Assembly: GCA_032654565.1 (NCBI GenBank)
Contig: JAULAX010000002.1
Location: 160,001 to 224,000 of the forward strand
DNA length: 64,000 nt
Direction: 5' to 3'
From: Anaeromyxobacteraceae bacterium
Lineage (GTDB): Bacteria; Myxococcota; Myxococcia; Myxococcales; Anaeromyxobacteraceae
The stretch's first letter is position 1, and each line of letters begins with the position of its first letter. A program made the position numbers and the translations under genes. This document shows positions 11,429 through 59,405 of this stretch, piece by piece. Below the pieces are notes generated by a model. The model did not search any database. It had not been told where the DNA came from and was given only the letters and a program-made list of their open reading frames with translations.

Positions 11429-11592
11429 GACGCGGAGGCTCCGATGTGGGGAGCCCTTCGACCAGAGGCCAGAGCGCCGTCCCCCGGAGACGCCTTGCCT
11501 TGGCGAATGGGGCGATCAGGCCTGCGCGGCGCAGCTTCCTGCGCCTTGCGATTGGTGACATGGCCATGACGCGGCCGGGCGAGGATGGCGGC

Positions 11593-12249
11593 ATGTCCAC
11601 GGTCGCCCACGCCCCCGGTCCCAAGCCGCTGCTCCGCGGCGTCTCCCACGAGATCGCCGCCGCCTTCGCCGTCGCCGGCTGGATCGTCCTGTTCAACGCC
11701 TCGACCGGCCTGCGCGGCGCCGTGGCCGCCGCCGTCTACGGCTTCGCCCTGACCGCCCAGTTCTCCATCTCGGCGCTCTACCACCGGCCCCGCTGGGGCG
11801 ACCGGGCCCGGCTGCTGATGCGCCGGCTCGACCACGCCGCCATCTTCGTGCTCATCGCCGGCACCTACACCCCCTTCTGCCTGCTGATGCCGCCGGAGAC
11901 CGGCCACCCGCTGCTCTGGGTGGTCTGGACCGGCGCCCTGGCCGGCATGATCCTCTCGGTGCTCTGGCCGCTGGCCCCCAAGTGGCTGATGGCGCTGCTC
12001 ACCGTGGGGCTGGGCTGGGCCATCGTCCCCACCTTCCCCTCCATGCTGGCGGCCATCGGCTGGCACGGGGTGGGGCTGCTCGGCGCCGGCGGCGTCGCCT
12101 ACACGGTGGGGGCGGTGGTCTACGCCACCCGCTGGCCCAACCCCAACCCCCGGGTCTTCGGCTATCACGAGGTCTTCCACGTGCTGGTGATCGCAGCGGC
12201 CATCTGCCACTACGTCGCCGTGGCCGGGACCATCGGCGCCATCAGGTAG
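11593..12249 (+). CDS. Hemolysin III / PAQR-family membrane protein
   Basis: KPLLRG.SH, SALYH, RRLDHAAIFVLIAGTYTP, HEVFH. Confidence 0.92.
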   Translation: MSTVAHAPGPKPLLRGVSHEIAAAFAVAGWIVLFNASTGLRGAVAAAVYGFALTAQFSISALYHRPRWGDRARLLMRRLDHAAIFVLIAGTYTPFCLLMPPETGHPLLWVVWTGALAGMILSVLWPLAPKWLMALLTVGLGWAIVPTFPSMLAAIGWHGVGLLGAGGVAYTVGAVVYATRWPNPNPRVFGYHEVFHVLVIAAAICHYVAVAGTIGAIR

Positions 12250-13126
12250 GCTTGACCCGCCTCAGCTCGGCCTCGATGAGCTGGGCCAGCAACCGGATGC
12301 GCGGGATGTCCAGCGCCGACCGGGCCGCCACCAGGTGGAGCGCGCCGCGGGCGAAGGGGCCGAGGTCGAGGTCGAGCGGCACCAGCGCGCTGGGGCGGGA
12401 GAAGCGGTGGCGCAGCCGCGGCAGGACCATCGCCCCCACGCCCGCCTCGGCGGCCGCCTGCTGCACCAGGATGTGGTCCGAGGTGAAGGCGGGCGTGTAG
12501 CCGGGGATCAGCTCGGCCAGCTGCGGGTTGGGCGGCAGCTCCTGGTACGGGGGCGCCCAGGCGATCCAGGGCAGCTCCTGCAGCATCGGCCGCCGCGGCA
12601 GCTTCCGGGCCAGCGCCGGCGCCACGTGGACCGCGTGGGTCGTCTCCAGCGTGTAGACCAGCGCCAGGTCCGGGTGGTTGGGCGGTCGCACCCGCAGCGC
12701 CAGGTCGGCCTCGCCGCGGGCCAGGTCGAGGTGCTGCATGGTGCCCAGCACCTCGAGGCGCAGCCCGGGGTGCTGGCCGGCCAGCCAGCCCGCGAGCGGG
12801 GCCAGGAAGTCGTGCGCCACCATGGGCGGCGCCGTGATCCGCACCAGCCCCTGCGGTCCCCGGTCGGTCGGCTCGGCGGCCCGCCCCACCTCGCCGGCCC
12901 ACTCGGCCATGCGCCGCGCCGGCGCCAGCATCCGCTCCCCCGCGGTGGTGAGCGCCGCGCCCGCGGCGCTGCGGCGGAAGAGCGACTCGCCCACGGCCCG
13001 CTCCAGCGTGGCCAGCCGCCGGCTCAGGGTGGGCTGCGCCATCCGCAGCTTCCGGGCGGCGGCGCTCACGCTCCCCTCCTCGGCCACGGCGAGGAAGAGC
13101 TTCACCTCATCCCAGGAGATATCCAT
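12242..13126 (-). CDS. LysR-family transcriptional regulator
   Basis: N-terminal HTH GSVSAAARKLRMAQPTLSRR; DLARGEADLALR. Confidence 0.93.
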   Translation of the reverse strand: MDISWDEVKLFLAVAEEGSVSAAARKLRMAQPTLSRRLATLERAVGESLFRRSAAGAALTTAGERMLAPARRMAEWAGEVGRAAEPTDRGPQGLVRITAPPMVAHDFLAPLAGWLAGQHPGLRLEVLGTMQHLDLARGEADLALRVRPPNHPDLALVYTLETTHAVHVAPALARKLPRRPMLQELPWIAWAPPYQELPPNPQLAELIPGYTPAFTSDHILVQQAAAEAGVGAMVLPRLRHRFSRPSALVPLDLDLGPFARGALHLVAARSALDIPRIRLLAQLIEAELRRVKPT

Positions 13127-13130
13127 TGGC

Positions 13131-13144
13131 GCATGATGTCATGC
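13131..13144. promoter_or_regulatory. Palindrome GCATGA-TG-TCATGC between divergent lysR and MBL genes; candidate operator
   Basis: Perfect 6-bp inverted repeat 4 nt upstream of the lysR ATG. Confidence 0.4.
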
Positions 13145-13208
13145 CTCCTTTGCTCTTTTCCATACCTGGGCGACTAGGTAGATCAGCCGCTCACGGAGGT
13201 CGTCCGCC

Positions 13209-14135
13209 ATGTCCAGCCGCCCCCTCGCCGTCGCCGCCCTGCTCCTCTCCACCGCCTGCGCCACCACCAGCCACCCCACCGGCGTCTCCTCGCTCGGCGT
13301 CGCCAGGCCGGCCCGGGACCTGCTCGCCGTCATCGACCAGCCCGGGCCGGTGGAGGTCGAGACCGTCGCCTCGGCCGACTGGGTGGTGCCGCGGGAGGGA
13401 CTCATCAACCTCGACCACCCGCGCGCCCGCGCCGCGGGCCTGAAGGACGGGCTGGAGCCGATCCAGGTCTACTTCCACGCCGTCCGCCACCCGACCCGCG
13501 GCCTCTTCCTCGTCGACACCGGCATCGAGCGGGCGCTGCGCGACCGACCGGAGCAGGCCGCCTTCCGCGGCCTGGTGGCCTCGCAGATGCACCTCGAGGC
13601 CCTGAAGGTCCACGTCGCGCTCGGTGACTGGCTGGCCGCCCACCCCGGGCCGGTGGCCGGCGTCTTCCTCACCCACCTCCACCCAGACCACCTGGCCGGC
13701 CTGGCCGACGTCGCCGCCGGGACCCCGGTCTACGCCGGGCCCGGGGAGGCGGGTGAGCGGGCGCTGGTGAACCTCTTCCTGCAGCCCAACATCGACCGGG
13801 CCCTGGCCGGCAAGGGGCTGCTGGCGACCTGGCCCTTCACCTCCGAGGTGGGCGGGCCCTTCGACGGGGTCGTCGACGTCTTCGGCGACGGCTCGGTCTG
13901 GGCGCTCTGGGTTCCGGGCCACACCGGCGGCAGCACCGCCTACCTGCTCCGCACCCCGCGCGGCCCCGTGCTCCTCGCCGGAGACGCCTGCCACACCCGC
14001 TGGGGATGGGACCACGACGTCGAGCCGGGCTCCTTCTCCAGCGACCTGCCGCGCAGCGCCGCGAGCCTGGCGCGGCTGAAGCGGCTGGTCGCCGAGCACC
14101 CGGGCGTCGAGGTGAGGCTCGGGCACCAGCGGTGA
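13209..14135 (+). CDS. MBL-fold metallo-hydrolase lipoprotein, AHL-lactonase-like
   Basis: Lipobox LSTAC; THLHPDH, PGHT, LAGDA and GH metal ligands; SD GGAGG. Confidence 0.85.
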   Translation: MSSRPLAVAALLLSTACATTSHPTGVSSLGVARPARDLLAVIDQPGPVEVETVASADWVVPREGLINLDHPRARAAGLKDGLEPIQVYFHAVRHPTRGLFLVDTGIERALRDRPEQAAFRGLVASQMHLEALKVHVALGDWLAAHPGPVAGVFLTHLHPDHLAGLADVAAGTPVYAGPGEAGERALVNLFLQPNIDRALAGKGLLATWPFTSEVGGPFDGVVDVFGDGSVWALWVPGHTGGSTAYLLRTPRGPVLLAGDACHTRWGWDHDVEPGSFSSDLPRSAASLARLKRLVAEHPGVEVRLGHQR

Positions 14136-15691: not shown

Positions 15692-16438
15692 CTAGGCCGG
15701 GGGCGGCGGCGCCGGAGGGCTGACCGCGGCGAGCGAGTAGATGATGCGGTTGCAGTTGGGGCAGGTCTCGATGGAGTCGGCCCGCTGCAGGACGATGGAG
15801 AGCTGGGGCGGGATGTTGCGGTGGCAGCCCTTGCAGGTGGAGCCGATCACCGCGGCCACGGCCACCCCGGCCCGCCGCTTCCTGATGTTCTCGTACTTGC
15901 CGAGCAGCCCGGCGTCCACCAGCGTCGCCGCGGTGGCCCGCCGCGCCGCCAGGGCGGCCAGCTTGGCCTCGGCCTCGGCGGCGGCCTGGTCCAGCTTGGC
16001 GGCGGCGGCCTGGGCGGCGTCCTCCACCTCGGCCAGCGCCTCGCCGCCGTCCTCGAGGGCGATGCGGATCTCCACGGCGGCGGCGGCCAGCACCTTGGCC
16101 TGCTCGCTCTGGGTCTCGTTCGACTTCTTGGCGATGTCGATCTCGCGTGACATGGCGGCGTACTCGCGCGGGGTCTTGATCTCGCCGAGCCGCCCCTCCC
16201 ACTTCTTCACCTTGTCGCGGTCCATCCCCAGCAGGGCCTCGACCTGGCGCTTCTCGCGCTCGTTGGCGTCCAGCCGGGCCTTCTGGTCGTCGTAGGCCTT
16301 GCGGGCCGCCTTGACCCGGGCCTCCAGGATGGCCCGCTCGGCGGGGATGGCCTCCAGCCCCTGGCGGGCGGCGTGGGCGTCGAGATCGATCTGCTGCAGC
16401 TCCTCCAGCACCCTCAGCTTCTCTCGCAGCGACGACAA
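15692..16438 (-). CDS. Coiled-coil plus C4 zinc-ribbon protein (DUF164 / HP0958 / CT398 family)
   Basis: LEELQQID, long heptad region, CKGC...CPNCNRI; TTG start with AGGAG SD. Confidence 0.88.
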   Translation of the reverse strand: MSSLREKLRVLEELQQIDLDAHAARQGLEAIPAERAILEARVKAARKAYDDQKARLDANEREKRQVEALLGMDRDKVKKWEGRLGEIKTPREYAAMSREIDIAKKSNETQSEQAKVLAAAAVEIRIALEDGGEALAEVEDAAQAAAAKLDQAAAEAEAKLAALAARRATAATLVDAGLLGKYENIRKRRAGVAVAAVIGSTCKGCHRNIPPQLSIVLQRADSIETCPNCNRIIYSLAAVSPPAPPPPA

Positions 16439-16475
16439 AGCGACTCTCCTTGCTGTGTCCAACCAACCGGTGATG

Positions 16476-16547
16476 TGGGCCCACCAGGATTTGAACCTGG
16501 ATCGGGTCGGTTATGAGCCGATGGCTCTGCCGTTGAGCTATGGGCCC
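16476..16547 (-). tRNA. tRNA-Ile2, anticodon CAU (lysidine-modified); CCA end not encoded
   Basis: Cloverleaf GGGCCCA/TGGGCCC, D-arm GCTC/GAGC, loop CTCATAA, T-arm CCAGG-TTCAAAT-CCTGG; paired G1-C72 (not initiator); C4-G69 and C5-G68; located just after rpoD. Confidence 0.9.
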
Positions 16548-16588
16548 GAGCTCGCCTGGCAGGGCGGTCGTACCACTTTCCTCGTCCT

Positions 16589-18856
<2,268 letters not shown>

Positions 18857-49388: not shown

Positions 49389-51083
49389 ATGAACGGCTGC
49401 CTGCTCGCGCTCCTCCTCTCCGGGACCGCCGCCTCGCCGCGCGGGGCCATCGCCACCGCCCACCCGCTGGCCAGCGCCGCCGGGGCCGAGGCCCTCCGCG
49501 ACGGGGGCAACGCCGTCGACGCCGCGGTGGCCGCGGCCCTGGCCCTCTCGGTGGTCCAGAACGAGAGCTCCGGGATCGGCGGCGGCGGCTTCGCGCTGGT
49601 CTGGCTGGCGAAGGAGCGGCGGCTGGTGGCGCTCGACTTCCGCGAGGTGGCGCCGGCCGCGGCCAGCCGCGACATGTTCCTCGTCGACGGCAAGCCGGCG
49701 CCGCGCCGCTCCACCGAGGGCGGCCTGGCGGTGGCGGTGCCGGGCGCGGTCAAGGGATACGCCGAGCTGGCGCGCCGCTTCGGCCGGCTCTCCTACGCCC
49801 GCCTCAGCGAGCCGGCGGCGCGGCTGGCGGAGCGCGGCTTCCAGGTGGGCCCGTACCACGCCCGGGCCGCCACCGAGCAGCGGGAGTGCCTCGGCGCCGA
49901 CCCGGCCGCCGCCGCCGAGTTCCTGGTCCCGGAGACCTCGGCGGCGCCGGGCGCGCCCCCGCGCCGGGTGGCCCGCCGCCCCGGCGACACGCTGCGCCGC
50001 CCCGACCTGGCCCGCACCCTGCGCCTGCTGGGGCGCGACCCCGAGGCGCTCTACCGCGGGGAGCTGGCCCGCAAGCTGGTCACCGCCGTCCGGGCCCGCG
50101 GCGGGCTGCTCACCGCCGCCGACCTGGCCGCCTACCGGACCGTGGAGCGCACCCCGCTGACCGGGACCTTCCGCGGCCACCGGGTGGTCTCCTGGCCACC
50201 GCCCTCGGCGGGCGGGGCCATCGTCATCGGCCTGCTGCAGGCGCTCGAGGGGGATATCACGACGGGTGAAGGCTACCGGCCGGTGGCCCAGCTGCACGCC
50301 TTCGTGGAGGTGGAGAAGCGGCTCTACGCAGCGCGGGCCGGCCGCTTCGCCGACCCGGCCTTCCTCCCCGGCGCCGACGCCGCGGCGGCCGAGCTGGTGA
50401 GCCCGGCCCACGCCAGGCGGCTGCGCGCCGAGGTGGGGGAGCGGGCCACGCCGTCGTCGACCCTCGCCCCGCCGGCGCCGGACGCGCCCGGCGGCGACCA
50501 CACCTCGCACCTCTCGGTGGTCGACGCCGAGGGCAACGCCGTGGCGCTCACCACCACCGTCAACGGCTGGTTCGGCGCCTGCGTGGTGGTGCCGGGGACC
50601 GGGCTCCTGCTCAACAACCAGATGGACGACTTCGACGCCGCGCCGGGGGTCCCCAACGCCTTCGGCCTGGTCGGCACCGGCGTCAACGGGGTGGCCCCGG
50701 GGAAGCGGCCGCTCTCCTCGATGGCCCCGACGCTGGTCTTCGACGCCGAGGGGCGGGTGGTGCTGGCGGTGGGGGCGCCGGGCGGCGCGACCATCCCCTC
50801 CACGGTGGCCCAGGTGATCATGCGCTTCCTCGGCGACGGGATGCCGCTCGACCAGGCGCTGGGGGCGCCGCGGGTTCACCACCAGTGGCTGCCGGACGCC
50901 GTGGTGGTGGAGCCCTTCGGCCTCGACGCCGCCACCGCCGAGGGGCTGCGGGGGCGCGGCCACGCGCTGAGCTTCCGGGCCCACCCGTTCGGCAACCCGC
51001 AGGCGGCGGCCATCGACTGGAAGACCGGGCTGCGGGAGGCGGCCAGCGAGCCGCGCTACGACGGGGCCCCGGCCATTCCCTGA
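49389..51083 (+). CDS. ggt: Gamma-glutamyltransferase
   Basis: GGNAVDAAVA, LDFRE.AP, HTSHLSVVD (Thr nucleophile), NNQMDDF, KRPLSSM. Confidence 0.95.
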   Translation: MNGCLLALLLSGTAASPRGAIATAHPLASAAGAEALRDGGNAVDAAVAAALALSVVQNESSGIGGGGFALVWLAKERRLVALDFREVAPAAASRDMFLVDGKPAPRRSTEGGLAVAVPGAVKGYAELARRFGRLSYARLSEPAARLAERGFQVGPYHARAATEQRECLGADPAAAAEFLVPETSAAPGAPPRRVARRPGDTLRRPDLARTLRLLGRDPEALYRGELARKLVTAVRARGGLLTAADLAAYRTVERTPLTGTFRGHRVVSWPPPSAGGAIVIGLLQALEGDITTGEGYRPVAQLHAFVEVEKRLYAARAGRFADPAFLPGADAAAAELVSPAHARRLRAEVGERATPSSTLAPPAPDAPGGDHTSHLSVVDAEGNAVALTTTVNGWFGACVVVPGTGLLLNNQMDDFDAAPGVPNAFGLVGTGVNGVAPGKRPLSSMAPTLVFDAEGRVVLAVGAPGGATIPSTVAQVIMRFLGDGMPLDQALGAPRVHHQWLPDAVVVEPFGLDAATAEGLRGRGHALSFRAHPFGNPQAAAIDWKTGLREAASEPRYDGAPAIP

Positions 51084-51108
51084 GGGAAGCCGGGCGCTTC
51101 GGGCCCTC

Positions 51109-51142
51109 TTCCTCCCTTCCCAGAGTTCCTCCCTTCCCAGAG
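51109..51142. repeat. Perfect 17-bp tandem direct repeat TTCCTCCCTTCCCAGAG x2
   Basis: 51109-51125 and 51126-51142 are identical. Confidence 0.85.
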
Positions 51143-51273
51143 TAGTTCGTGACGCGGTGGCGGCCGGTGGCCTCGCCCCTGGACCGGTCCGCGCCGCGGA
51201 CCCGGCGGCCGTCTCGCGACCTCGGCACGCGCCGCCCCGGCCCCTTTCACCAGCAAGTTCACGCGCTCCGCGC

Positions 51274-51289
51274 CGGCACGGCGGATGCT
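51274..51289 (+). promoter_or_regulatory. Sigma54 (-24/-12) promoter candidate for the type III cluster
   Basis: CGGCACG-GCGG-ATGCT with exact GG-N10-GC spacing; predicted start near 51300, just before SD GGAGGA and ATG 51315. Confidence 0.6.
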
Positions 51290-51314
51290 CCCTCCTCGGC
51301 CCGGAGGAACCACC

Positions 51315-51818
51315 ATGAGCCGAGTCGAGTCGATCAACGTCGCCACCACCACCGAGCGCAAGACCGTCCCAGGGCGCTTCGAGGCGGCGCTGCAGGGGGC
51401 CACCCGTGCGCTCGCCTCCGGGGTGGTGGGCGCCGTCGAGCTGGCCGCCCCCGCCGTCCCCTTCGGCACCGTGCTGGCCGGGGCGGTGCGCGGGGGGCTC
51501 CAGGGCGGCCCCGGGCCGTCCTCCGGTCCGACCGGCGGGGAGCGGCTCTCCCGGCTCGGCCCCGGCGGCGCCCCGCTGGGGAGCGGGGGACCCGGCGGCG
51601 TCCCCCTCACCGGCGGAAGTCCCAGCGGCGGCGGCGGCTCGCCGGGGGACCTGCTGGAGGCGACCCGCGTCATGCAGCAGGAGGCGCAGGCCATGAACCT
51701 GCAGTACCTGCAGCTCCAGGAGCGGATGCAGCAGGAGAACCGCGAGTTCACGGCCCTCTCCAACGTCATGCGGGTCAAGCACGACACCGCCCGCACCGCC
51801 ATCGGCAACGTCCACTAG
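51315..51818 (+). CDS. Putative type III needle/filament-like subunit
   Basis: C-terminal helix YLQLQERMQQENREFTALSNVMRVKHDTARTAIGNVH; first gene, ahead of the rod-like gene and sctJ. Confidence 0.5.
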   Translation: MSRVESINVATTTERKTVPGRFEAALQGATRALASGVVGAVELAAPAVPFGTVLAGAVRGGLQGGPGPSSGPTGGERLSRLGPGGAPLGSGGPGGVPLTGGSPSGGGGSPGDLLEATRVMQQEAQAMNLQYLQLQERMQQENREFTALSNVMRVKHDTARTAIGNVH

Positions 51819-51827
51819 GAGCCGACC

Positions 51828-52166
51828 GTGCCCATCCCACCCGTGGCCCCGGCCGCCGTCGCCTCCCCCGCACCGCGCCCCGCGGCGGGGTCCGGCTTCG
51901 AGGCCCGGCTCGCCGCCCACGCCACCCCACCCCGGGCCCCGCCTCCCCCGGCGCCGCTGGCCCAGGCCCTCCGCTCGCTGGAGGCCTCGCAGGCCCGGCT
52001 CGACCGGGTGCTGCAGGCCGCCCGCGCCGGCCGGACCTTCACGGCGGGTGAGTTGCTGGCGCTCCAGGCGGACACCTACCGCTTCGCGCAGACGCTCGAC
52101 GTGGCCTCCAAGCTGGTGGAGCACGGGGTCCAGTCGGTGAAGCAGGCGGTCAACGCCCAGGTCTAG
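51828..52166 (+). CDS. Putative type III inner-rod protein (SctI/HrpB2-like)
   Basis: ELLALQ...LDVASKLVE.GVQSVKQAVNAQ C-terminus; directly upstream of sctJ. Confidence 0.6.
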   Translation: MPIPPVAPAAVASPAPRPAAGSGFEARLAAHATPPRAPPPPAPLAQALRSLEASQARLDRVLQAARAGRTFTAGELLALQADTYRFAQTLDVASKLVEHGVQSVKQAVNAQV

Positions 52167-52174
52167 AGGCCACC

Positions 52175-52900
52175 GTGCGCCCTCCCCTCGCCACCGCCCC
52201 GCTGCTCCTCGGCCTGCTGCTCGGCGGCTGCGCCGACGAGCCGCTGCTCCACGACCTGGCCGAGCGCCAGGCCAACGAGGTGCTGGTGGCCCTCGACGAG
52301 GAGGGCGTGGCCGGCACCAAGGCCCGGCAGGAGGGAACCGAGGCGGCCTGGACCGTGGCGGTGGCGCGCGCCGAGGTGGGCAAGGCCCACCGGGTGCTGG
52401 CGGCCCGGCAGCTGCCGCGGGCCCGGCCGCAGGGACTGGGCGAGGTCTTCGGCCAGGGCGGCATGGTCCCCACGCCGGTCGAGGAGCGGGCGCGCTGGCT
52501 CCACGCCCTCTCCGGCGAGCTGGCCCGCAGTCTCGAGGCGCTCGACGGCGTCATCGAGGCCCGGGTCCACCTCGGCCTGCCGGCCGAGGACCCGCTCCAC
52601 CCCGGCGCCCGCCCGGCGCCCCGGGCGGCGGTGCTGGTCAAGTGCCGGCCGGCGGCCTGCGGGACGCTGCGCGACCTGGAGCCGGGGCTCCGGGCGCTGG
52701 TGGCCGGCTCGGCCGACGGGCTCTCGGCGGAGGCGGTGGCGGTGGTGATCGCCGAGGCGGCGCCGGTGCCGGCCGCGGCGCCGCTGGTCGGCCGGACCCG
52801 GCGATTCGCCCCCTGGCTGGCCGGCCTGGCGGCGCTGGCGGCCTGCGCCGTGGGGGCCCTGGCCTGGCGGGAGCGCCGCGGCCCCGGCGAGGCGGCGTGA
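52175..52900 (+). CDS. sctJ: Type III inner-membrane ring lipoprotein (YscJ/HrcJ)
   Basis: Lipobox LGGC; L.ERQANEV, F...GMVPTP.EE.AR, DGVIEARVHL; C-terminal TM. Confidence 0.9.
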   Translation: MRPPLATAPLLLGLLLGGCADEPLLHDLAERQANEVLVALDEEGVAGTKARQEGTEAAWTVAVARAEVGKAHRVLAARQLPRARPQGLGEVFGQGGMVPTPVEERARWLHALSGELARSLEALDGVIEARVHLGLPAEDPLHPGARPAPRAAVLVKCRPAACGTLRDLEPGLRALVAGSADGLSAEAVAVVIAEAAPVPAAAPLVGRTRRFAPWLAGLAALAACAVGALAWRERRGPGEAA

Positions 52901-53229
52901 CCGAGGCGCTGCACCGGCTGGTGGCGCTGGCCGCCGTGCTGGCCCCGGCGCGCGCGGTGCGCCTGCTCGGCCGGCTCCAGGACCCGGAGGGGGCCGAGGC
53001 GGTGCGGCGGGTCGGGGCGCTGGCCCTGGCGCCCCGGCGAGCCCGGCTGGCGGCGCTGGCGTCGGCGCTCCCCGGCGCCGGATCGGCGTCACCGACCCTC
53101 CCCGCCTCCCCGGGCACCCTGCCCGACCACCCGCTGGCCCGGCGGCTGGAGGTGGAGCGGCGCAGCCGTGCGACCGCGGGGCGGACCCTGGTCCGCGGCG
53201 CGACCGCTCCCGCCCCCCGCCCCACCTGA
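52897..53229 (+). CDS. Small helical protein at the SctK/OrgA position
   Basis: GTGA overlap with sctJ; position only. Confidence 0.45.
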   Translation: MTEALHRLVALAAVLAPARAVRLLGRLQDPEGAEAVRRVGALALAPRRARLAALASALPGAGSASPTLPASPGTLPDHPLARRLEVERRSRATAGRTLVRGATAPAPRPT

Positions 53230-53276
53230 GATCGCGGGTGGTTCCGAGCGGCACGGGGCGTGAAGTCTCCGAGACC

Positions 53277-54260
53277 ATGGCGCTCCCCTTCGACCTCCCC
53301 TCCATCTCCCGCGGCTTCGCCGCGCTCGACCGGGGCGCCCGGGCCACCGGCGCCGAGGCGGCCGCGGCGGCGGCCCGCGCCCTGGCCGAGGTGCTCGGCG
53401 TCGAGGTGACGCTGACCGGCTCGGCCCGTCCGGTGGCCGCCGGGCCGGCCCGCCCGGCCGTCCGCCTGGCCATCGAGCTGGCGGCGCTGCCCGGCTCGGC
53501 CCTGCTCGAGGTGGACCCGTCGCTGGTGGTCCGGCTGGTGGGGCTGGTCTCGGGCGGCGGCGAGTCGCTGGCCGGCGCCACGTCGCTGACCCCGCTCGAG
53601 GAGTCGGCGCTCGAGCTGCTGGTGCTGGCCGCCATCGACGGCGCCGCCGAGCTCGACGCCGTCACCGATCGGCTGGCCCCTCGCCTGGCCCGCGCCGCGC
53701 CGCCACCTCGGTCGCCGCTGGCCATCGATCTCGAGGTGTGCGCCGGCGGGGTTCGTGGCCGCGCCAGGCTGCTCCTCCCGCCCGCGGCGGTGGAGGCGCT
53801 GGCCACGCCGCCCGAGCTGGCCGAGCCGCTGCTGGCCTTCCCCCTCTTCGCCTCGCTCCGGGGCGGCTCCGCGCCGCTGCAGCCCGGGGAGCTGCGGGCC
53901 CTGGCCCCCGGCGACGTGGTGCTGGCCGACCCCCCGGCCGACGGGCGCCACCGCCTCGCCTTCCCCGGCGGCTTCACCGCCGTCGGCACCCTGACCGACG
54001 GCTCATTCCTCGTGGAGGAGACGATGATGGAGACACCCCTGGCGCAGGTCCCGGTCCTGCTCGAGGTGGAGCTGGCGCGGGTCCCGCTGACACTCAGCGA
54101 CCTCGCCCGCCTCACCCCGGGCGCCACGCTGCCCGTCCAGCTCGACCGGCGCGGGCTGGTGACGCTGCGGATCGGCGAGCGGCCGATCGGCCGCGGCGAG
54201 CTGGTGGAGATCGACGGCGCGGTCGGCGTGCGGGTGCTCTCGCTGGAGGTGCTGCCGTGA
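53277..54260 (+). CDS. sctQ: Type III C-ring / sorting-platform protein (FliM/FliN-like SPOA domains)
   Basis: L.PGDVV; VPV.LEVELAR..L...DL..L.PG; IGRGELVEIDG.VGVRV. Confidence 0.85.
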   Translation: MALPFDLPSISRGFAALDRGARATGAEAAAAAARALAEVLGVEVTLTGSARPVAAGPARPAVRLAIELAALPGSALLEVDPSLVVRLVGLVSGGGESLAGATSLTPLEESALELLVLAAIDGAAELDAVTDRLAPRLARAAPPPRSPLAIDLEVCAGGVRGRARLLLPPAAVEALATPPELAEPLLAFPLFASLRGGSAPLQPGELRALAPGDVVLADPPADGRHRLAFPGGFTAVGTLTDGSFLVEETMMETPLAQVPVLLEVELARVPLTLSDLARLTPGATLPVQLDRRGLVTLRIGERPIGRGELVEIDGAVGVRVLSLEVLP

Positions 54261-54601
54261 TCACGCTCCCCTTCGGCGCCCGCGGCCCGGCGCTGGCCCT
54301 GGTCGCGGTCGGCCTCCTCGGGGGCGCCGCGCTGGCGCTCCTCCCCGGCGAGGCGGGGGTGGTGGCCGCCCGCGCCGGGCTGCTGGTGCTCGCGCTCGGC
54401 GCCGGGGTGGTGCTCCTGCGCCGCCGGGCGGCCGGGGACCCGCCGCCGCGGCTCCGGGTGGTGGCCCGGGCGGCGCTGGCCCGCGACGCCGCCGCGGTGC
54501 TGGTGGAGCTGGATGGCCGGCCCATGCTGCTGGGGGTGGGGCGCGACGGCGTCCGGCTGCTGATGGAGACCGGGTGGATGGGACCGGAGGCGGAGCCGTG
54601 A
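54257..54601 (+). CDS. fliO: FliO-like membrane protein
   Basis: TM segments, then LRVVAR..L...VLVELDGR.MLLGVG...V.LL; between the FliN-like and FliP-like genes. Confidence 0.65.
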   Translation: MITLPFGARGPALALVAVGLLGGAALALLPGEAGVVAARAGLLVLALGAGVVLLRRRAAGDPPPRLRVVARAALARDAAAVLVELDGRPMLLGVGRDGVRLLMETGWMGPEAEP

Positions 54602-55275
54602 TCGCCGAGCTGCCGGTCGCCGGCCCGCTGGCCGCCCGCCCCGCCGACTGGCTGCTGCTGCTCGGCCTCACCGCGCTGGCGCCGGTGCTGCTGGTCACCC
54701 TCACCTCCTTCCTGAAGATCTCGGTGGTGCTCTCGGTGCTCCGCTCGGCGCTGGGCGCGCCGCAGGTCCCGCCCACCACCGCGGTCACCGGGCTGGCGCT
54801 GGTCCTGACCCTGGCGGTGATGGCGCCGGTGGGCGAGGCCGCCTGGGCGGCGGCGCGGATCGTCCCCCCGGGCGGAGAGGCCGGGGCCCTGGCCTCCGGG
54901 GCCCGGGCCCTGGTCCCGGTGAAGGGCTTCCTGGCCCGCTTCGCCCGCGCCGACGACCGCGCGGTCTTCCTCGACCTGGCCCGCCGGCTGCGGCCCGGGG
55001 CGGTGGAGGTGGACGGCGACGACCTGGCCGTGCTGGCCCCGGCCTTCATGGTCTCCGAGCTGCGCCGCGCCTTCACCATCGGCTTCCTGGTCTTCCTCCC
55101 CTTCCTGGTGGTCGACCTGGTGGTCGCCAACGTCCTGCTGGCGCTGGGGCTGACCCAGCTCTCGCCCACCGCGGTCTCGCTGCCGCTCAAGCTCCTCCTG
55201 CTGGTGGCGGTCGATGGCTGGCGGCTGCTGGCGCGCGGGCTGGCCCTGGCCTACGCCCCCGGGAGCCTCCCGTGA
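54598..55275 (+). CDS. sctR: Export gate protein SctR/FliP
   Basis: TSF.KISVVLS.LR.ALG..QVPP; PAF.VSEL..AF.IGF..FLPF.VVDLVVA; SLPLK...DGW. Confidence 0.92.
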   Translation: MIAELPVAGPLAARPADWLLLLGLTALAPVLLVTLTSFLKISVVLSVLRSALGAPQVPPTTAVTGLALVLTLAVMAPVGEAAWAAARIVPPGGEAGALASGARALVPVKGFLARFARADDRAVFLDLARRLRPGAVEVDGDDLAVLAPAFMVSELRRAFTIGFLVFLPFLVVDLVVANVLLALGLTQLSPTAVSLPLKLLLLVAVDGWRLLARGLALAYAPGSLP

Positions 55276-55538
55276 CCGGCACCGTGCTGCACCTCGGTCG
55301 CGAGGCGCTGCTGCTGGCGCTGCTGGTCTCGGCGCCGCCGCTCTGCGCCGCCCTGGTGGTCGGGCTCCTCACCGGGGTGCTGCAGGCGGCCACCCAGCTG
55401 CAGGAGCACGCCCTCGGCGCCGTCCCGCGCATCGCCGCGGTGATCGCGGCGCTGCTGGTGACCGGCCCGTGGATGGGGGCGCGGCTGGCCCGCTTCGCCG
55501 CCGAGGTGCTGGCGCTGGCGGCCGGAGGCGTGCCGTGA
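55272..55538 (+). CDS. sctS: Export gate protein SctS/FliQ
   Basis: LVVGL..GVLQAATQLQE..L..VPR; GPWM. Confidence 0.9.
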   Translation: MTGTVLHLGREALLLALLVSAPPLCAALVVGLLTGVLQAATQLQEHALGAVPRIAAVIAALLVTGPWMGARLARFAAEVLALAAGGVP

Positions 55539-56323
55539 GCGGCTGGCCCCCCGACGCCGGCGCGCTCCACGGGCCGCTGCTCCACGCCCTCCGGCTGCTG
55601 CCGGTGGCGATCCTCTCGCCGTTCCTCGGCGGCCCGCTGGTCCCGGCGCCGCTCCGGCTGCTGCTGGGGATCGGGCTGGGGACGGTGGCCTGGGCGCTGG
55701 GCGGCGCGCGGCCGGTGGCCGCCCCGGGGCTGGAGCTGGCGGCGCTGGGGCTGCGGGAGCTGGCGCTGGGCGCCGGGCTGGCGGTGGTGATGGCCGCCCC
55801 GCTGGAGGCGGCGCGGGCCGCCGGGCGGCTGGCCGACACCGCCCGGGGCGCCACCCTGGCGGAGCTGCACGTGGCGCCGCTGCGCCAGCGCGAGACCGCG
55901 CTCGGTGACCTGCTGGTGCAGCAGCTGGTGGTGCTGGCCGCGGTGGGCGGCGGACTCCAGCTGGTCCTGCGCGGTCTCCTCCTCTCCTTCGTCGCCCTCC
56001 CCGTCGGCGCCCCCTTCGCCGCCCTGCCGGTGGCCGAGCTGGCGCTGCGGGCCTCCTCGCTGGTGCTGGCCACGGCGGTGGCGGTGGCGGCCCCGGCGGT
56101 GGCCGGCGTCCTCGCCGCCGAGCTGGCGGTGGCGGCGGTGGTGCGGGTCGCCCCCGGGCTCCAGCTGCCCGAGCTGACGCAGCCGGCGCGCGCCTCGCTG
56201 GGGTTGCTGGCCATGGCGCTGGCCGCCTCGGCCGGCGCCGGCCGGCTGGTGGCGCTGCTGGCCCAGGCCGCCGACGTCCAGGCGCTGTTCGCCGCGCTGG
56301 CCCGGCCGGGCGTGACGCCATGA
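55535..56323 (+). CDS. sctT: Export gate protein SctT/FliR (divergent)
   Basis: R...P.LGG..VP...R; RELALG; AG.LAD..RG; SF..LPVG; R.AP.L; gene order R-S-T-U. Confidence 0.8.
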   Translation: MSGWPPDAGALHGPLLHALRLLPVAILSPFLGGPLVPAPLRLLLGIGLGTVAWALGGARPVAAPGLELAALGLRELALGAGLAVVMAAPLEAARAAGRLADTARGATLAELHVAPLRQRETALGDLLVQQLVVLAAVGGGLQLVLRGLLLSFVALPVGAPFAALPVAELALRASSLVLATAVAVAAPAVAGVLAAELAVAAVVRVAPGLQLPELTQPARASLGLLAMALAASAGAGRLVALLAQAADVQALFAALARPGVTP

Positions 56324-57354
56324 GCGGGGAGCGGACCGAGCGCCCGTCACCGAAGCGGCTGGCCCAGGCCCGGCGCCAGGGCGAGGTGGCGGTCTCGCGC
56401 GAGCTCTCCGGCGCCGTCTCGCTGCTGGCCGGCCTGGCGGCGCTGGCGGCCTGCGGCCCCTGGTGGTTCTCGGCCCTGGCCGCCGAGGTGCGGGGCGGGC
56501 TGCAGGCGGCGGTCGCGGCCGAGCGGGTCCCCGGCGGCGCGCTGGCCTCGGCGGCGCTGGCGGTGGTCCGCCTCTCGGCCTTCCCGGCCCTGGCCGCGCT
56601 CGCGGCGGCGCTGGCGGCCGGGGCGCTCCAGAGCGGCGGGCTCTGCACCCTCCGCCCGCTGGCGCCGAAGCTGGAGCGGATCGATCCCTTCCGCGGGCTG
56701 GCCCGGCTCTGCTCGGCGGCCCGGCTCGCGGCCCTCGGGCTGGGGCTGCTCAAGGCGGCGCTGGTGATCGCGGCCGCCCTCCATGGCTGGCGCGCCACCG
56801 CCGCCACGCTGGCCCAGCTGCCGCGGGCCACGGCGACCGGCGCGGCGCTGGCCGCCCTGCTCTGGCCGCTGGCCTGGCGGCTGGCGGGCCTGCTGCTGCT
56901 GCTCGGCGGCGCCGACTGGCTGCTGGTCCGCCGTCGCCACCTGCGGCAGCTGCGGATGTCCCGCGACGAGCTCCGGCGCGAGGCCCGCGAGGACGACGGC
57001 GACCCGGCCCACCGGGCGGAGCGGCGGCGCCTCCACCGGGCCCTGGCCGAGGCGCCGCCGGTGGCCCGCGCCACCTGCCTGGTGGTCAACCCCACCCACG
57101 TGGCCGTGGCCCTCCTCCACCGGCGCGGCTCGGACGAGGCGCCGCGGGTGCTGGCCAAGGGGTCCGGGAGCGCCGCCGCTCGGCTCCGCTCCCAGGCGCG
57201 GCGGGCCGGCGTGCCCATCGTCCGCGATCCGCCCCTGGCGCGGGCGCTCCACCGGCTGGCCGAGGTGGGCGACGAGATCCCCGAGGAGCTCTACGACGCC
57301 GCCGCCGCGGCGCTCGCCCACCTGCACGGAACCCCGCCGCCGGAGGCCACGTGA
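56320..57354 (+). CDS. sctU: Export switch protein SctU/FlhB
   Basis: ERTERPS.KRL..AR..G.V..S.EL; LRMS.DE...E...DGDP; NPTH autocleavage motif. Confidence 0.93.
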   Translation: MSGERTERPSPKRLAQARRQGEVAVSRELSGAVSLLAGLAALAACGPWWFSALAAEVRGGLQAAVAAERVPGGALASAALAVVRLSAFPALAALAAALAAGALQSGGLCTLRPLAPKLERIDPFRGLARLCSAARLAALGLGLLKAALVIAAALHGWRATAATLAQLPRATATGAALAALLWPLAWRLAGLLLLLGGADWLLVRRRHLRQLRMSRDELRREAREDDGDPAHRAERRRLHRALAEAPPVARATCLVVNPTHVAVALLHRRGSDEAPRVLAKGSGSAAARLRSQARRAGVPIVRDPPLARALHRLAEVGDEIPEELYDAAAAALAHLHGTPPPEAT

Positions 57355-59405
57355 CCTGGCTCCACCCCCTGCTCTCCCGCCTGCGCGGCGCCGGCGACGC
57401 CGGCTTCGCCCTGGCCGTGCTCGCCCTGGTGGTGCTGCTGGTGGCGCCGGTGCCGCCCGCCCTGCTCGACGCCGGGCTGGCCTTCTCGCTGGCGCTGGCC
57501 GCCACCGTGCTGGTGGTGACGCTGCTGGCCCGCGACGCCCTGGCCTTCGCCAGCTTCCCCTCGCTGCTGCTCCTCACCACCCTGCTCCGGCTCGCCCTCT
57601 CGGTCTCCTCGACCCGCCTCGTGTTGACCCGGGGTGAAGCGGGGCGGGTCATCGAGGCCTTCGGCCGCGTGGTGGTGCAGGGGAGCCCGGTGGCCGGGGC
57701 GGTGGTCTTCGCCATCCTCACCCTGGTCCAGCTGCTGGTGGTGGCCAAGGGGGCGGAGCGGGTGGCCGAGGTGGCGGCGCGCTTCACCCTCGACGCCCTC
57801 CCCGGCAAGCAGATGGCCATCGACGCCGACCTGCGGGCCGGCCTGCTCGACGGCGCCGGGGCGGCGCGGCGCCGGCGGGCCCTGGAGCGGGAGAGCCAGC
57901 TCTACGGCGCCATGGACGGGGCCCTCAAGTTCGTGAAGGGCGACGCCGTCGCCGGCGTGGCCATCGTGCTGGTCAACGCCGTGGGCGGGCTGGTGGCGCT
58001 CTCGCTCCGCGGCCGGCCGCTGGGCGCGGCGGCCGAGCGGGCGGTGCTGCTGGCGGTCGGCGACGGCCTCACCGCCCAGCTCCCGGCGCTGCTGGTGGCG
58101 GTGGCCGCCGGGGTGGCGGTGACGCGGGTGGCCTCGGCGGAGGACGGCCAGCGGCTCGGCAGCGAGGTGGGGCGGCAGCTCTTCGGCGAGCCCCGGGCGC
58201 TGGCGGCGGTGGCGCTGCTGCTCGGCGCCATCGGCGTGGCGCCCGGGCTGCCGGCGGCGCCGTTCCTGCTGCTCTCGGCCGGGGCCGGGGCGCTGGCCTG
58301 GCGCGGGCTGCGGCGCGCCCCGGAGGCGGCCGGGCTCGAGGCGGGGGAGGGATCGACCGAGCCGGCCGGCGGCCCGGCGGGACCGGGCGACGGCCCGCTC
58401 CGCGACGAGGACGCCGGCGCCGTGGTGCTGGAGCTGGCCGAGGACCTCCTCGAGCTGGACAGCGCCGACGGCGGCGCCTTCGTGGGGGAGCTGGTGCCGG
58501 CGCTGCGCGAGCGGCTCTGGCGCGAGCTCGGCGTGGTGGCCCCGCCGCTCCTGGTCCGGCAGGCGCCGCTGGAGCCGGGCCGCTGGGCCCTGCTCATCCA
58601 CGGGGTCCCGGCCGCCGGGGGGCGGGTGGCGCTCCACGAGCGGCTCTCGCTGGCCCCGCTCGACGACCTGGCGCTGGCCGGGATCTCGCTGCGGCCGGAG
58701 CTGGAGCCGGCCAGCGGTCGGCGCGCCGCCGTGGTGTCGGACCTGGACTCGGCGCGGGCCCTGGCGCTGGGGCCGGTGCTGGGCTCCCTGGAGCGGGTCG
58801 CCGCCGCCTGCGCCGCCGAGCTGGAGCGGAGCGCCGGCCTGCTGGTGGGCGTCCAGGAAGCCCAGGCGCTGCTCGACCGGCTCGAGCCGCACGCCCCGGC
58901 GCTGGTGCGCGAGGTGTCACGCCAGGTGGCCCCGGCCCTGCTGGCCGAGGTGCTGCGCCGGCTGCTCGAGGAGGGGGTGTCGATCCGCCCGCTGCGGACC
59001 ATCCTCGAGGCGCTGCTGGAGGCGGGCGGCGGGCCGCGCGGCGCGGCGGCGCTGGCGGCAGCGGCCCGACGGTCCCTGCGGCGCCAGATCGGCCACCGGG
59101 CCGGCGGCGGCCGGGCCCTCCCGGCGCTGCTGCTGGATCCGGTCGCCGAGCAGAGCGTCCGGGAGTCGCTGCTCGGGGAGTGGCCGGCGCTCGAGCCGGC
59201 GCGGGCCGCGCTCCTCCTCGAGGCGCTGGAGCGGGCGCTCCTGGCGGCGGGCGGGACCCCGGTGCTGCTGGCCAGCGGCGACGTGCGGCGGGCGGTCCGG
59301 CTGCTGGTGGCCCCCCGCTGGCCGCGGCTGCAGGTGCTCAGCTACGACGAGCTGCCCCCGGAGCAGGCCATCCTGCCGGTGGGGCGGCTCGAGCTGGCGG
59401 CGTGA
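57351..59405 (+). CDS. sctV: Major export apparatus protein SctV/FlhA
   Basis: FPSLLL.TTL.RL; KGAERVAEVAARFTLDALPGKQMAIDADL; YGAMDGA.KFVKGDA; LL.EGVSIR; VLSYDEL. Confidence 0.94.
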   Translation: MTWLHPLLSRLRGAGDAGFALAVLALVVLLVAPVPPALLDAGLAFSLALAATVLVVTLLARDALAFASFPSLLLLTTLLRLALSVSSTRLVLTRGEAGRVIEAFGRVVVQGSPVAGAVVFAILTLVQLLVVAKGAERVAEVAARFTLDALPGKQMAIDADLRAGLLDGAGAARRRRALERESQLYGAMDGALKFVKGDAVAGVAIVLVNAVGGLVALSLRGRPLGAAAERAVLLAVGDGLTAQLPALLVAVAAGVAVTRVASAEDGQRLGSEVGRQLFGEPRALAAVALLLGAIGVAPGLPAAPFLLLSAGAGALAWRGLRRAPEAAGLEAGEGSTEPAGGPAGPGDGPLRDEDAGAVVLELAEDLLELDSADGGAFVGELVPALRERLWRELGVVAPPLLVRQAPLEPGRWALLIHGVPAAGGRVALHERLSLAPLDDLALAGISLRPELEPASGRRAAVVSDLDSARALALGPVLGSLERVAAACAAELERSAGLLVGVQEAQALLDRLEPHAPALVREVSRQVAPALLAEVLRRLLEEGVSIRPLRTILEALLEAGGGPRGAAALAAAARRSLRRQIGHRAGGGRALPALLLDPVAEQSVRESLLGEWPALEPARAALLLEALERALLAAGGTPVLLASGDVRRAVRLLVAPRWPRLQVLSYDELPPEQAILPVGRLELAA

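Follow-up and report, generated by a model that had tools for sequence, protein, structure and literature searches.

Introduction

Among the axial proteins of type III secretion systems (T3SSs), SctI is the first to be laid down on the SctRST cone and serves as the base for polymerisation of SctF, and conserved ends with a hypervariable middle are typical of such proteins. Passages of three papers on the T3SS loci of the Myxococcales report the needle subunit as missing (PMC3459982, PMC10433427, PMC12075869); parts of the first argue for a loss of SctF and for a system that may not secrete to the outside, parts of the third propose that the tips of Kil pili replace the missing needle, and a section of a further paper terms the system 'needle-less' (PMC12428579). 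Here, we analyse a window of 64 kb (the whole stretch of DNA considered, 74.5% G+C) from an Anaeromyxobacteraceae bacterium, in which two open reading frames (ORFs), ORF1 and ORF2, head a T3SS operon. An earlier note on this DNA had taken them, by eye, for candidate needle or filament and inner-rod genes in a supposedly needleless system.

The C-terminal helix of ORF1 is probably homologous to the C-terminal helix of SctF, judged by sequence profiles, and on balance we lean towards reading ORF1 and ORF2 as the pair of axial proteins that the 'short' non-flagellar T3SS of the Myxococcota exports; on this reading, ORF1 would be a double-length relative of SctF that stacks on ORF2. No report of a needle-family gene in Myxococcota T3SS loci was found in the literature searched, whose coverage ended short of Thiery et al. 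2022 (Cell Rep) and of the figures and supplements of PMC3459982, which may annotate ORF1. Relative to that literature, ORF1 as a long SctF-like relative in these loci is new, and ORF2 as the inner rod is known.

The C-terminal helix of ORF1 and the needle subunits

A profile of 77 distinct C-terminal sequences of the ORF1 family was aligned by hhalign with a template of 21 Inv/Mxi SctF proteins, gathered with MxiH of pCP301, and matched it with a score of 29.0 (Prob 71.5, P = 3.6e-5), query columns 42-75 of 75 lying on template columns 52-85 of 85, so that the 34 aligned columns run to both C-termini. Column-shuffled SctF templates, 150 in all, scored 10.3 on average (sd 2.2) and at most 18.6, none of them coming up to the real match, and the template in reverse gave 9.4; the resemblance to SctF that had been noticed by eye at the end of ORF1 thus survives a profile test. 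Other helical T3SS families, namely SctO, SctL, tetratricopeptide repeat (TPR) proteins, ORF4 and the ORF2 family, scored 6.4-11.6 against the ORF1 profile, and crossed pairs stayed at background (ORF1 against MxiI 9.2; ORF2 against SctF 14.3). Subsets of the query scored 20.9-28.3 against SctF (short-locus rows 26.3, long-locus rows 21.4), and all of them aligned to the C-terminal end of the template within one column. Compared with MxiH alone, the ORF1 family alignment showed 33% identity over 40 columns in an unchanged register. The nearly invariant D157 of ORF1 aligned with MxiH D73, and basic residues of ORF1 with K69, K72 and R83. In the parts of PMC6455054 that deal with the needle, the C-terminal helix of SctF is described as the needle core that lines the channel, the N-terminal part as facing outward and the conserved Asp (MxiH D73) as important.

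A number of results weigh against an axial role for ORF1. The similarity to SctF spans only ~34 residues of one helix; once the two most needle-like rows were taken out, the score fell to 24.4 (P = 3.3e-4, Prob 38; 0/150 shuffles, maximum 20.1), and Anaeromyxobacter-type rows alone gave 20.9 (P = 0.0019, Prob 14). ORF1 of the window itself has no match at E ≤ 1 to PF09392, TIGR02105 or PF09589 (Pfam, NCBIfam), PF09392 had 0 matches at E ≤ 1 when all six frames of the entire genome were scanned, and a PDB sequence-profile search with the ORF1 family alignment found no T3SS protein at E ≤ 10. Single-sequence Pfam matches among the 150 best family representatives stand at noise level (PF09392 5, HrpA_pilin 12 and HrpF 5, where an unrelated helical-bundle family has 30). 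AlphaFold2 yielded no hairpin for ORF1 and low confidence for its N-part, and a Foldseek search with the ORF1 model, a check proposed in the earlier note, found nothing. The ORF1 N-domain was rejected as a counterpart of the SctF N-helix, its alignment with the N-half of SctF (N-helix and PxxP turn) giving an hhalign P of 0.79.

Part of this evidence would also suit an origin of the SctF likeness by convergence of a short polar helix, with ORF1 as a non-exported accessory such as a part of the cytoplasmic platform: the match extends over ~34 columns, Prob is 14-38% in the stricter subsets, the single-sequence family matches do not rise above noise and the ORF1 model has no structural match. 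We nevertheless hold convergence to be very unlikely, given that 0/150 shuffles reached the score in each of two separate runs, that every subset settles on the C-terminal end of the template, that graded relatives of ORF1 reach above the Pfam PF09392 cut-off and that ORF1 shares the operon position of SctF.

Weak matches to SrfA (PF24296) occurred in 23 of 33 ORF1 relatives, with a best E of 0.011. For the filament subunits EspA and Bsp22, which the earlier note had named beside SctF, there was no Pfam match at E ≤ 1, a comparison by family model into which no EspA or Bsp22 sequence entered.

Architecture of ORF1

Across 33 relatives, ORF1 has conserved ends and a hypervariable middle, the majority fraction being 0.76 in the N-part, 0.35 in the linker and 0.87 in the C-part. 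The Gly-rich middle that had been pointed out from the sequence holds up: Gly accounts for 44% of residues 64-111, Pro for 19% and Ser for 15%, and this linker is the least conserved part of the protein, with a length of 21-60 aa (amino acids) in the 33 relatives. AlphaFold2 predicts a single helix at residues 110-166, with a predicted local distance difference test (pLDDT) of 89-97 in that block, together with weak N-terminal helices and a disordered linker. Of the amphipathic C-terminal helix claimed for ORF1, the helix is therefore predicted but the amphipathicity falls away, since the maximum hydrophobic moment of 0.45 is not unusual against shuffled sequences (0.42 ± 0.09), 34% of which reach it. 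The expected helical hairpin likewise appears in ORF2 but not in ORF1, where AlphaFold2 places one C-terminal helix only.

ORF2 and the inner rod

With 36 relatives, AlphaFold2 modelled ORF2 at a mean pLDDT of 81.6, as helices 42-66 and 73-111 with a short turn, and with a pLDDT of 85-97 in the hairpin block. A profile of its C-terminal part (63 sequences) matched Shigella MxiI over 50 columns with an hhalign score of 26.0 (P = 1.8e-4), whereas none of 100 shuffled MxiI sequences reached that score (mean 9.7, maximum 16.6), which bears out the remark that ORF2 ends like SctI. An inner-rod protein is moreover already listed for the Myxococcales short locus in part of PMC3459982. The confident hairpin, the MxiI profile match and this listing together support ORF2 as an SctI-type inner-rod protein, an identity already known.

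Curated family models and structure searches added less. ORF2 of the window has no Pfam or NCBIfam match at E ≤ 1 and so lies below the curated SctI cut-offs. PF17001 matched 12 of 36 ORF2 relatives weakly (best E 0.0072), but an unrelated family matched 14 of 36, so these matches mean little by themselves. The ORF2 homologue of G118, a 9.0-Mb Myxococcus-like genome, matched NF038054 (0.0042) and TIGR02497 (0.011), and of 77 ORF2 relatives, one goes by the name YscI/HrpB-like and four come with a precomputed PF09392 label. A Foldseek search that started from the ORF2 model gave no match at E ≤ 0.001, its weak rows including PrgJ, MxiI and FliE chains, and a wide VIA-align search with the same model was topped by generic helical hairpins (Z 7.8), with flagellar hook, proximal rod and a needle chain at Z 6.6-6.7; structure searches do not discriminate among helical hairpins. 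PDB sequence-profile searches with alignments A1 and A2, the latter being the ORF1 family, found no T3SS protein at E ≤ 10.

The operon and its genes

ORF1 and ORF2 are real, conserved genes. With 407 and 77 relatives, respectively, at E ≤ 0.001, neither is a spurious ORF thrown up by the high GC content; three of the 120 ORF1 relatives listed are named, all of them Anaeromyxobacter. The G+C content at third codon positions is 0.96 for ORF1 and 0.96 for ORF2, and differences from same-genus orthologues fall on codon positions 1/2/3 as 13/20/45 for ORF1 (against L020) and 16/7/30 for ORF2 (against L018). Both frames stand where they had been drawn, and the strong Shine-Dalgarno site ascribed to the first gene is present (Table 1). 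ATG 51315 is the conserved start of ORF1, an alternative upstream ATG at 51285 falling within the promoter element.

Table 1. Coordinates, in the window, of the T3SS operon, its regulatory elements and the segments of its first two products
Feature	Coordinates (strand)	Evidence or remark
Sigma-54-type promoter element (-24/-12), GGCAC-N5-ATGCT, GGCACGGCGGATGCT	51275..51289 (+)	26 nt 5' of ORF1 start
Shine-Dalgarno GGAGGA	51303..51308 (+)	6 nt 5' of ORF1 ATG; conserved in same-family loci
ORF1, 167 aa	51315..51818 (+)	ATG 51315, TAG 51816-51818; SctF-like candidate axial subunit with N-terminal extension
ORF1 conserved N-domain, aa 1-63	51315..51503 (+)	R21 F22 A25 L26 and P46 P49 G51 invariant among 33 relatives
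ORF1 invariant F22-x-x-x-L26	51378..51392 (+)	Alignment of 33 relatives
ORF1 invariant P46-x-x-P49	51450..51461 (+)	Alignment of 33 relatives; linker separates P46-P49 from C-helix
ORF1 variable Gly/Pro/Ser linker, aa 64-111	51504..51647 (+)	Low conservation; pLDDT <50
ORF1 C-terminal helix, aa 112-167, SctF-like segment	51648..51815 (+)	AlphaFold2; hhalign against SctF; family motif
Shine-Dalgarno AGGAG	51817..51821 (+)	6 nt 5' of ORF2 GTG
ORF2, 112 aa	51828..52166 (+)	GTG 51828, TAG 52164-52166; SctI-like inner-rod protein
ORF2 F24-x-x-x-L28	51897..51911 (+)	Invariant or nearly so
ORF2 helical hairpin, aa 42-111	51951..52160 (+)	AlphaFold2
SctJ inner-membrane ring lipoprotein	52175..52900 (+)	Pfam YscJ_FliF 2.3e-22; TIGR02544 4.3e-43
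ORF4, 110 aa, SctK position	52897..53229 (+)	Conserved in short loci; without family match (Pfam, NCBIfam)
SctQ	53238..54260 (+)	FliMN_C 2e-17; TIGR02551 5.7e-25
FliO-like protein, start codon not fixed	about 54260..54601 (+), between SctQ and SctR	PF04347 2.2e-07
SctR	54574..55275 (+)	FliP 2.3e-59
SctS	55272..55538 (+)	Bac_export_3 1.3e-25
SctT	55535..56323 (+)	Bac_export_1 3e-25
SctU	56320..57354 (+)	Bac_export_2 8.9e-84
SctV	57351..59405 (+)	FHIPEP 4.7e-174

From ORF1 through SctV, positions 51315-59405 (+) form a single tightly packed operon, flanked 5' by a gamma-glutamyltranspeptidase gene and 3', on the opposite strand, by an HU/IHF-family DNA-binding gene. The operon is the 'short' Myxococcales non-flagellar T3SS locus of Abby and Rocha, as part of PMC3459982 describes it, and FliO has been reported before in myxobacterial and Myxococcota T3SSs by a 2025 preprint (PMC12248157). 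The proposed gene order F-I-J-K is borne out as far as J, with SctJ directly after ORF2 as in mxiH-mxiI-mxiJ of pCP301. Its K is not confirmed, since ORF4, tried as SctK/MxiK, does not resemble MxiK (hhalign P = 0.96) and was rejected. Myxococcus-like versions of ORF4 are longer and have in common an LPPYHR-x-LFP motif that is absent from ORF4 of the window.

Relatives across the Myxococcota

The ORF1 profile was present in 327 of 401 sampled Myxococcota genomes, in 269 of the 316 high-quality ones and in 121 of 154 genera, the unpublished genome G196 being among the 401 and used in tallies only. A profile of the C-terminal 56 aa of ORF1 found 4743 representative proteins at E ≤ 0.001, and all 150 of the matches listed end no more than one residue from the C-terminus of the protein.

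Several relatives grade towards the needle family. In a series scored against PF09392 (cut-off 29.4 bits), L053 reached 31.6 and L052 30.3 bits, followed by relatives at 28.1, 27.3, 26.2 and 24.5, by the long-locus ORF1 homologue L099 at 20.7 (E = 4.7e-4) and by L047, the short-locus homologue of G118, at 13.6; the long-locus homologue of G118 matched PF09392 and TIGR02105 at E = 0.02. PF09392 was found at E ≤ 0.1 in 131 of the 401 Myxococcota genomes, above the cut-off in five, as against 1 of 14 controls and none above the cut-off. Ten of the 12 PF09392-matching frames examined also match the hidden Markov model (HMM) of ORF1 at E ≤ 0.1, two examined PF09392 matches coincide with the C-terminal end of an ORF1 homologue from a long locus (L099, L100), and in most frames of the series the ORF1 HMM match runs to the C-terminus (E 7.6e-7 to 0.1). 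A Myxococcota cluster in the ESM Atlas, at a score of 0.90, has PF09392 in 11% of its members.

Two proteins of ~150 aa above the PF09392 cut-off, L101 (G042) and L102 (G099), come from small-genome Myxococcota (1.6-3.4 Mb) and match the ORF1 HMM weakly (E = 0.097 and 0.0023, respectively); no T3SS or ORF1 profile match at E < 1e-3 lies within ~6 kb on either side of them. SctF-like C-termini also occur in tandem gene arrays: G162 has two frames of 256-291 aa (L104/L052, contig C133) beside TPR genes and SctU/SctR, G305 has six to seven small copies (contig C1, 37324-43149), and an array is listed for G168 (contig C78, 17147-18241).

Gene neighbourhoods and the TPR protein

Forty-seven loci, hand-picked from match lists and not a random sample, were fetched, and 44 of them contain an ORF1 homologue. 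Wherever neighbours were in range among these loci, the homologue heads the T3SS genes, and SctI lies downstream within range in 28/44. ORF1 is followed directly by SctI-SctJ in 14/44 loci, 13 of which go on as SctQ...SctU in the 'short', window-like form; in another 14/44 the order is ORF1, a TPR gene and SctI-SctJ, usually with a FliG-like gene and SctL-SctN (the 'long' form). The homologue adjoins a TPR gene with SctI not in range in 11/44 and stands alone, mostly at contig ends, in 5/44.

G118 has one ORF1 copy in each locus type, at the head of the T3SS genes both times, and its long locus, at 2.84 Mb, appears from its gene content to be the T3SS* cluster of the literature. This long locus (L046) contains a YscO match (6.3e-46) and a 304-aa protein (16368-17282) with a FliK-type hook-length or ruler domain above cut-off (PF02120, 6.3e-8), which points to a structure of measured length. 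Such additions to the locus are absent from the window genome. A 774-aa protein encoded after SctJ in the same locus (11436-13760) shows FliG_C likeness and hexapeptide repeats.

A gene for a three-TPR protein adjoins ORF1 in 25 of the 44 loci, and the SycD/LcrH model is the best or second-best curated match of this neighbour in the three examples scanned (4.4e-14 in L046). A complex prediction for the long-locus TPR protein with its ORF1 homologue scored 0.29, against a mark of 0.32. A TPR partner would be at home beside a small, translocator-like, membrane-active substrate made of a hydrophobic segment and a C-terminal helix, which it would keep soluble in long loci as a class II (SycD/LcrH-type) chaperone and which would insert into a target or outer membrane. 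We consider this role for ORF1 decidedly unlikely. The TPR protein of L046 resembles SctY (1e-6) and the needle co-chaperone CdsG (1.6e-3) as well, and the window genome has no clear orthologue of the TPR chaperone. Residues 37-55 of ORF1 are moderately hydrophobic, with a Kyte-Doolittle 19-residue maximum of 1.69 (family median 1.51, range 1.08-1.92), but the stretch is borderline and holds two invariant prolines plus, in the window genome, a Glu. SseC matched weakly in 1 of 33 members of the ORF1 family. The only reproducible profile link of ORF1 is to SctF. Known minor translocators are about twice the size of ORF1, which also counts against a translocator. A translocator would likewise agree with the borderline hydrophobicity of ORF1 and, in long loci, with a neighbour that resembles SycD/LcrH, which takes something from the case for an SctF-type subunit.

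Promoter, export genes and secretins

The pattern GGCAYNNNNNWTGCW has a single match in the window, the element at 51275-51289, where chance would give a mean of 0.57 per window; the matching sequence, GGCACGGCGGATGCT, fits the sigma-54 -24/-12 consensus. An element of this type lies at -37 to -44 in 15/15 same-family loci in which the ORF1 start could be located, a count that leaves out 15 further same-family loci where the start pattern failed. It was found in 0/44 upstream regions of ORF1 homologues from other families and is therefore a feature of the lineage, outside the definition of the ORF1 family. Neither a sigma-70-like promoter nor a terminator was found within 50900-52400.

The remaining export genes of this 98% complete genome lie elsewhere. 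On contig C17, rpoB and rpoC are followed directly by an ATPase module of a sigma-70-family factor, SctL, SctN and a FliJ/SctO-like gene (L015, C17 204000-223999; 9160-12420), and profile matches on contig C9, at about 214000-234300, mark a flagellar-type cluster of FliF, FliG, FliH, FliI, FliN, FliP, FlhB and FlhA, so that the genome has two type III export gates. Absences from this genome also speak against an axial ORF1. It has no T3SS-type secretin, its two secretins being below the SctC cut-off and neither lying beside T3SS genes, and it has no FliK-like ruler and no clear TPR chaperone orthologue; with secretin, ruler and chaperone orthologue all absent, an external needle is not expected here. 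The stretch of contig C2 that lies 5-15 kb past the end of the window (228972-238949) has a pilin-like gene and encodes a response regulator of sigma-54 type and a secretin of 845 aa; housekeeping genes stand between this secretin and the T3SS operon, and its score does not reach the SctC cut-off.

The same genome content bears on whether ORF1 polymerises at all. An exported ORF1 might keep its SctF-like helix and act without polymerising, by plugging or capping the SctI layer, as a secreted regulator (of anti-sigma type, its export reporting assembly) or as a substrate-switch partner. Consistent with this, a gene for a sigma-70-family factor stands beside T3SS genes both on C17, just upstream of SctL-SctN, and in G001, where it falls within the T3SS locus and has the ORF1/TPR pair on one side and SctI on the other (L049 6249-7049); ORF1 is mostly disordered outside one helix, and the ruler, secretin or SctD expected for a long structure are absent from the genome. 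We think this unlikely all the same, because ORF1 shows no likeness to FlgM or gatekeeper families at E ≤ 1, because its helix retains the characteristic needle-core residues and because its gene, first in the operon and preceded by a strong Shine-Dalgarno site, looks like that of an abundant protein.

A proposed axial structure

The analysis shows that ORF1 and ORF2 are real genes, how their families are built, where the genes lie in their loci and which profiles they resemble; from this we infer export, polymerisation and location for the two as axial proteins. The sigma-54 promoter and the strong Shine-Dalgarno site would drive the operon, and both products would be recognised as early substrates, possibly at SctU via a common N-terminal F-x-x-x-L. 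This motif is invariant or nearly invariant and lies within residues 22-28 of both ORF1 and ORF2, and a gate recognition consensus of the form F-x-x-x-hydrophobic is reportedly due to Evans et al. in 2013. Part of PMC8983047 describes how flagellar rod and hook subunits dock on FlhB via a short hydrophobic gate recognition motif, and F-x-x-x-L is possibly a lead for the recognition of ORF1 and ORF2 at SctU. ORF2, as an SctI-type inner rod or adaptor, would then sit on the SctRST cone, and ORF1 would stack on it by its C-terminal helix, giving a narrow tube with the variable Gly-rich loop on the outside. Since the genome has no T3SS secretin, such a tube would stay in the periplasm as a short rod or stub and not stand on the surface as a needle.

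With a needle-like ORF1 and an inner-rod ORF2 opening the operon, the 'needleless' machine may build a tube, and the earlier suggestion of a filament made from a larger, unrecognised subunit would then apply to ORF1. It is conceivable, if somewhat doubtful, that myxobacterial T3SSs in general, the predation-linked T3SS* of Myxococcus xanthus among them, are not needleless after all: on a base of SctI, and with no secretin belonging to the system, they would raise a tube from an SctF-derived subunit of 140-190 aa. Models of the Myxococcales T3SS rest on the absence of a needle, and a conserved SctF-like gene heading the T3SS genes of the fetched loci gives them a concrete test. It also bears on the evolution of the injectisome from the flagellum: if the proposal is true, an axial structure of needle type, either confined to the periplasm or docked on another envelope machine, was present in the earliest non-flagellar T3SS branch before a secretin was recruited.

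Comparison with known systems

Flagellar rod and hook substrates have conserved termini around a variable middle, their gate recognition motif is resembled by the N-terminal F-x-x-x-L of both ORF1 and ORF2, and FliO is kept in the operon; in contrast, no flagellar rod or hook family was matched, and the motif spacing is unlike that of FlgD (residues 36-40). Likeness to SctI (PF17001, TIGR02497, NF038054; MxiI, PrgJ, YscI) lies in the C-terminal hairpin of ORF2, in the MxiI profile match and in the position of the gene directly 5' of sctJ, whereas ORF2 differs in falling below the curated cut-offs and in having a long Pro/Ala-rich N-terminal part.

HrpA pilins (PF09589) are, as ORF1 is, larger and fast-evolving subunits whose conserved part is C-terminal, and HrpA opens an operon in which hrpB (SctI) and hrcJ follow. 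PF09589 matched weakly in 14/33 ORF1 relatives, at about profile positions 15-87 of 96 (best E 0.0059), but the examples reach 14.8-16.5 bits against a cut-off of 25, in a comparison made by Pfam model only.

From SctF (PF09392, TIGR02105; MxiH, PrgI, YscF, PscF), ORF1 differs in its length of 167 aa, twice that of the 80-aa helix-PxxP-helix hairpin, which is not detectable in ORF1, in its unrelated N-terminal 63 aa and in the variable Gly/Pro/Ser linker inserted after them; ORF1 of the window also lies under all curated thresholds, and its system is without a secretin. In common with SctF, ORF1 is encoded directly upstream of sctI-sctJ, like mxiH, it has relatives in the same phylum that exceed the PF09392 cut-off, and it keeps to its last residue the C-helix motif ...SN-x-x-(K/R)-V-x-(K/H)-D-x-x-x-x-I-x-N-x-(R/H).

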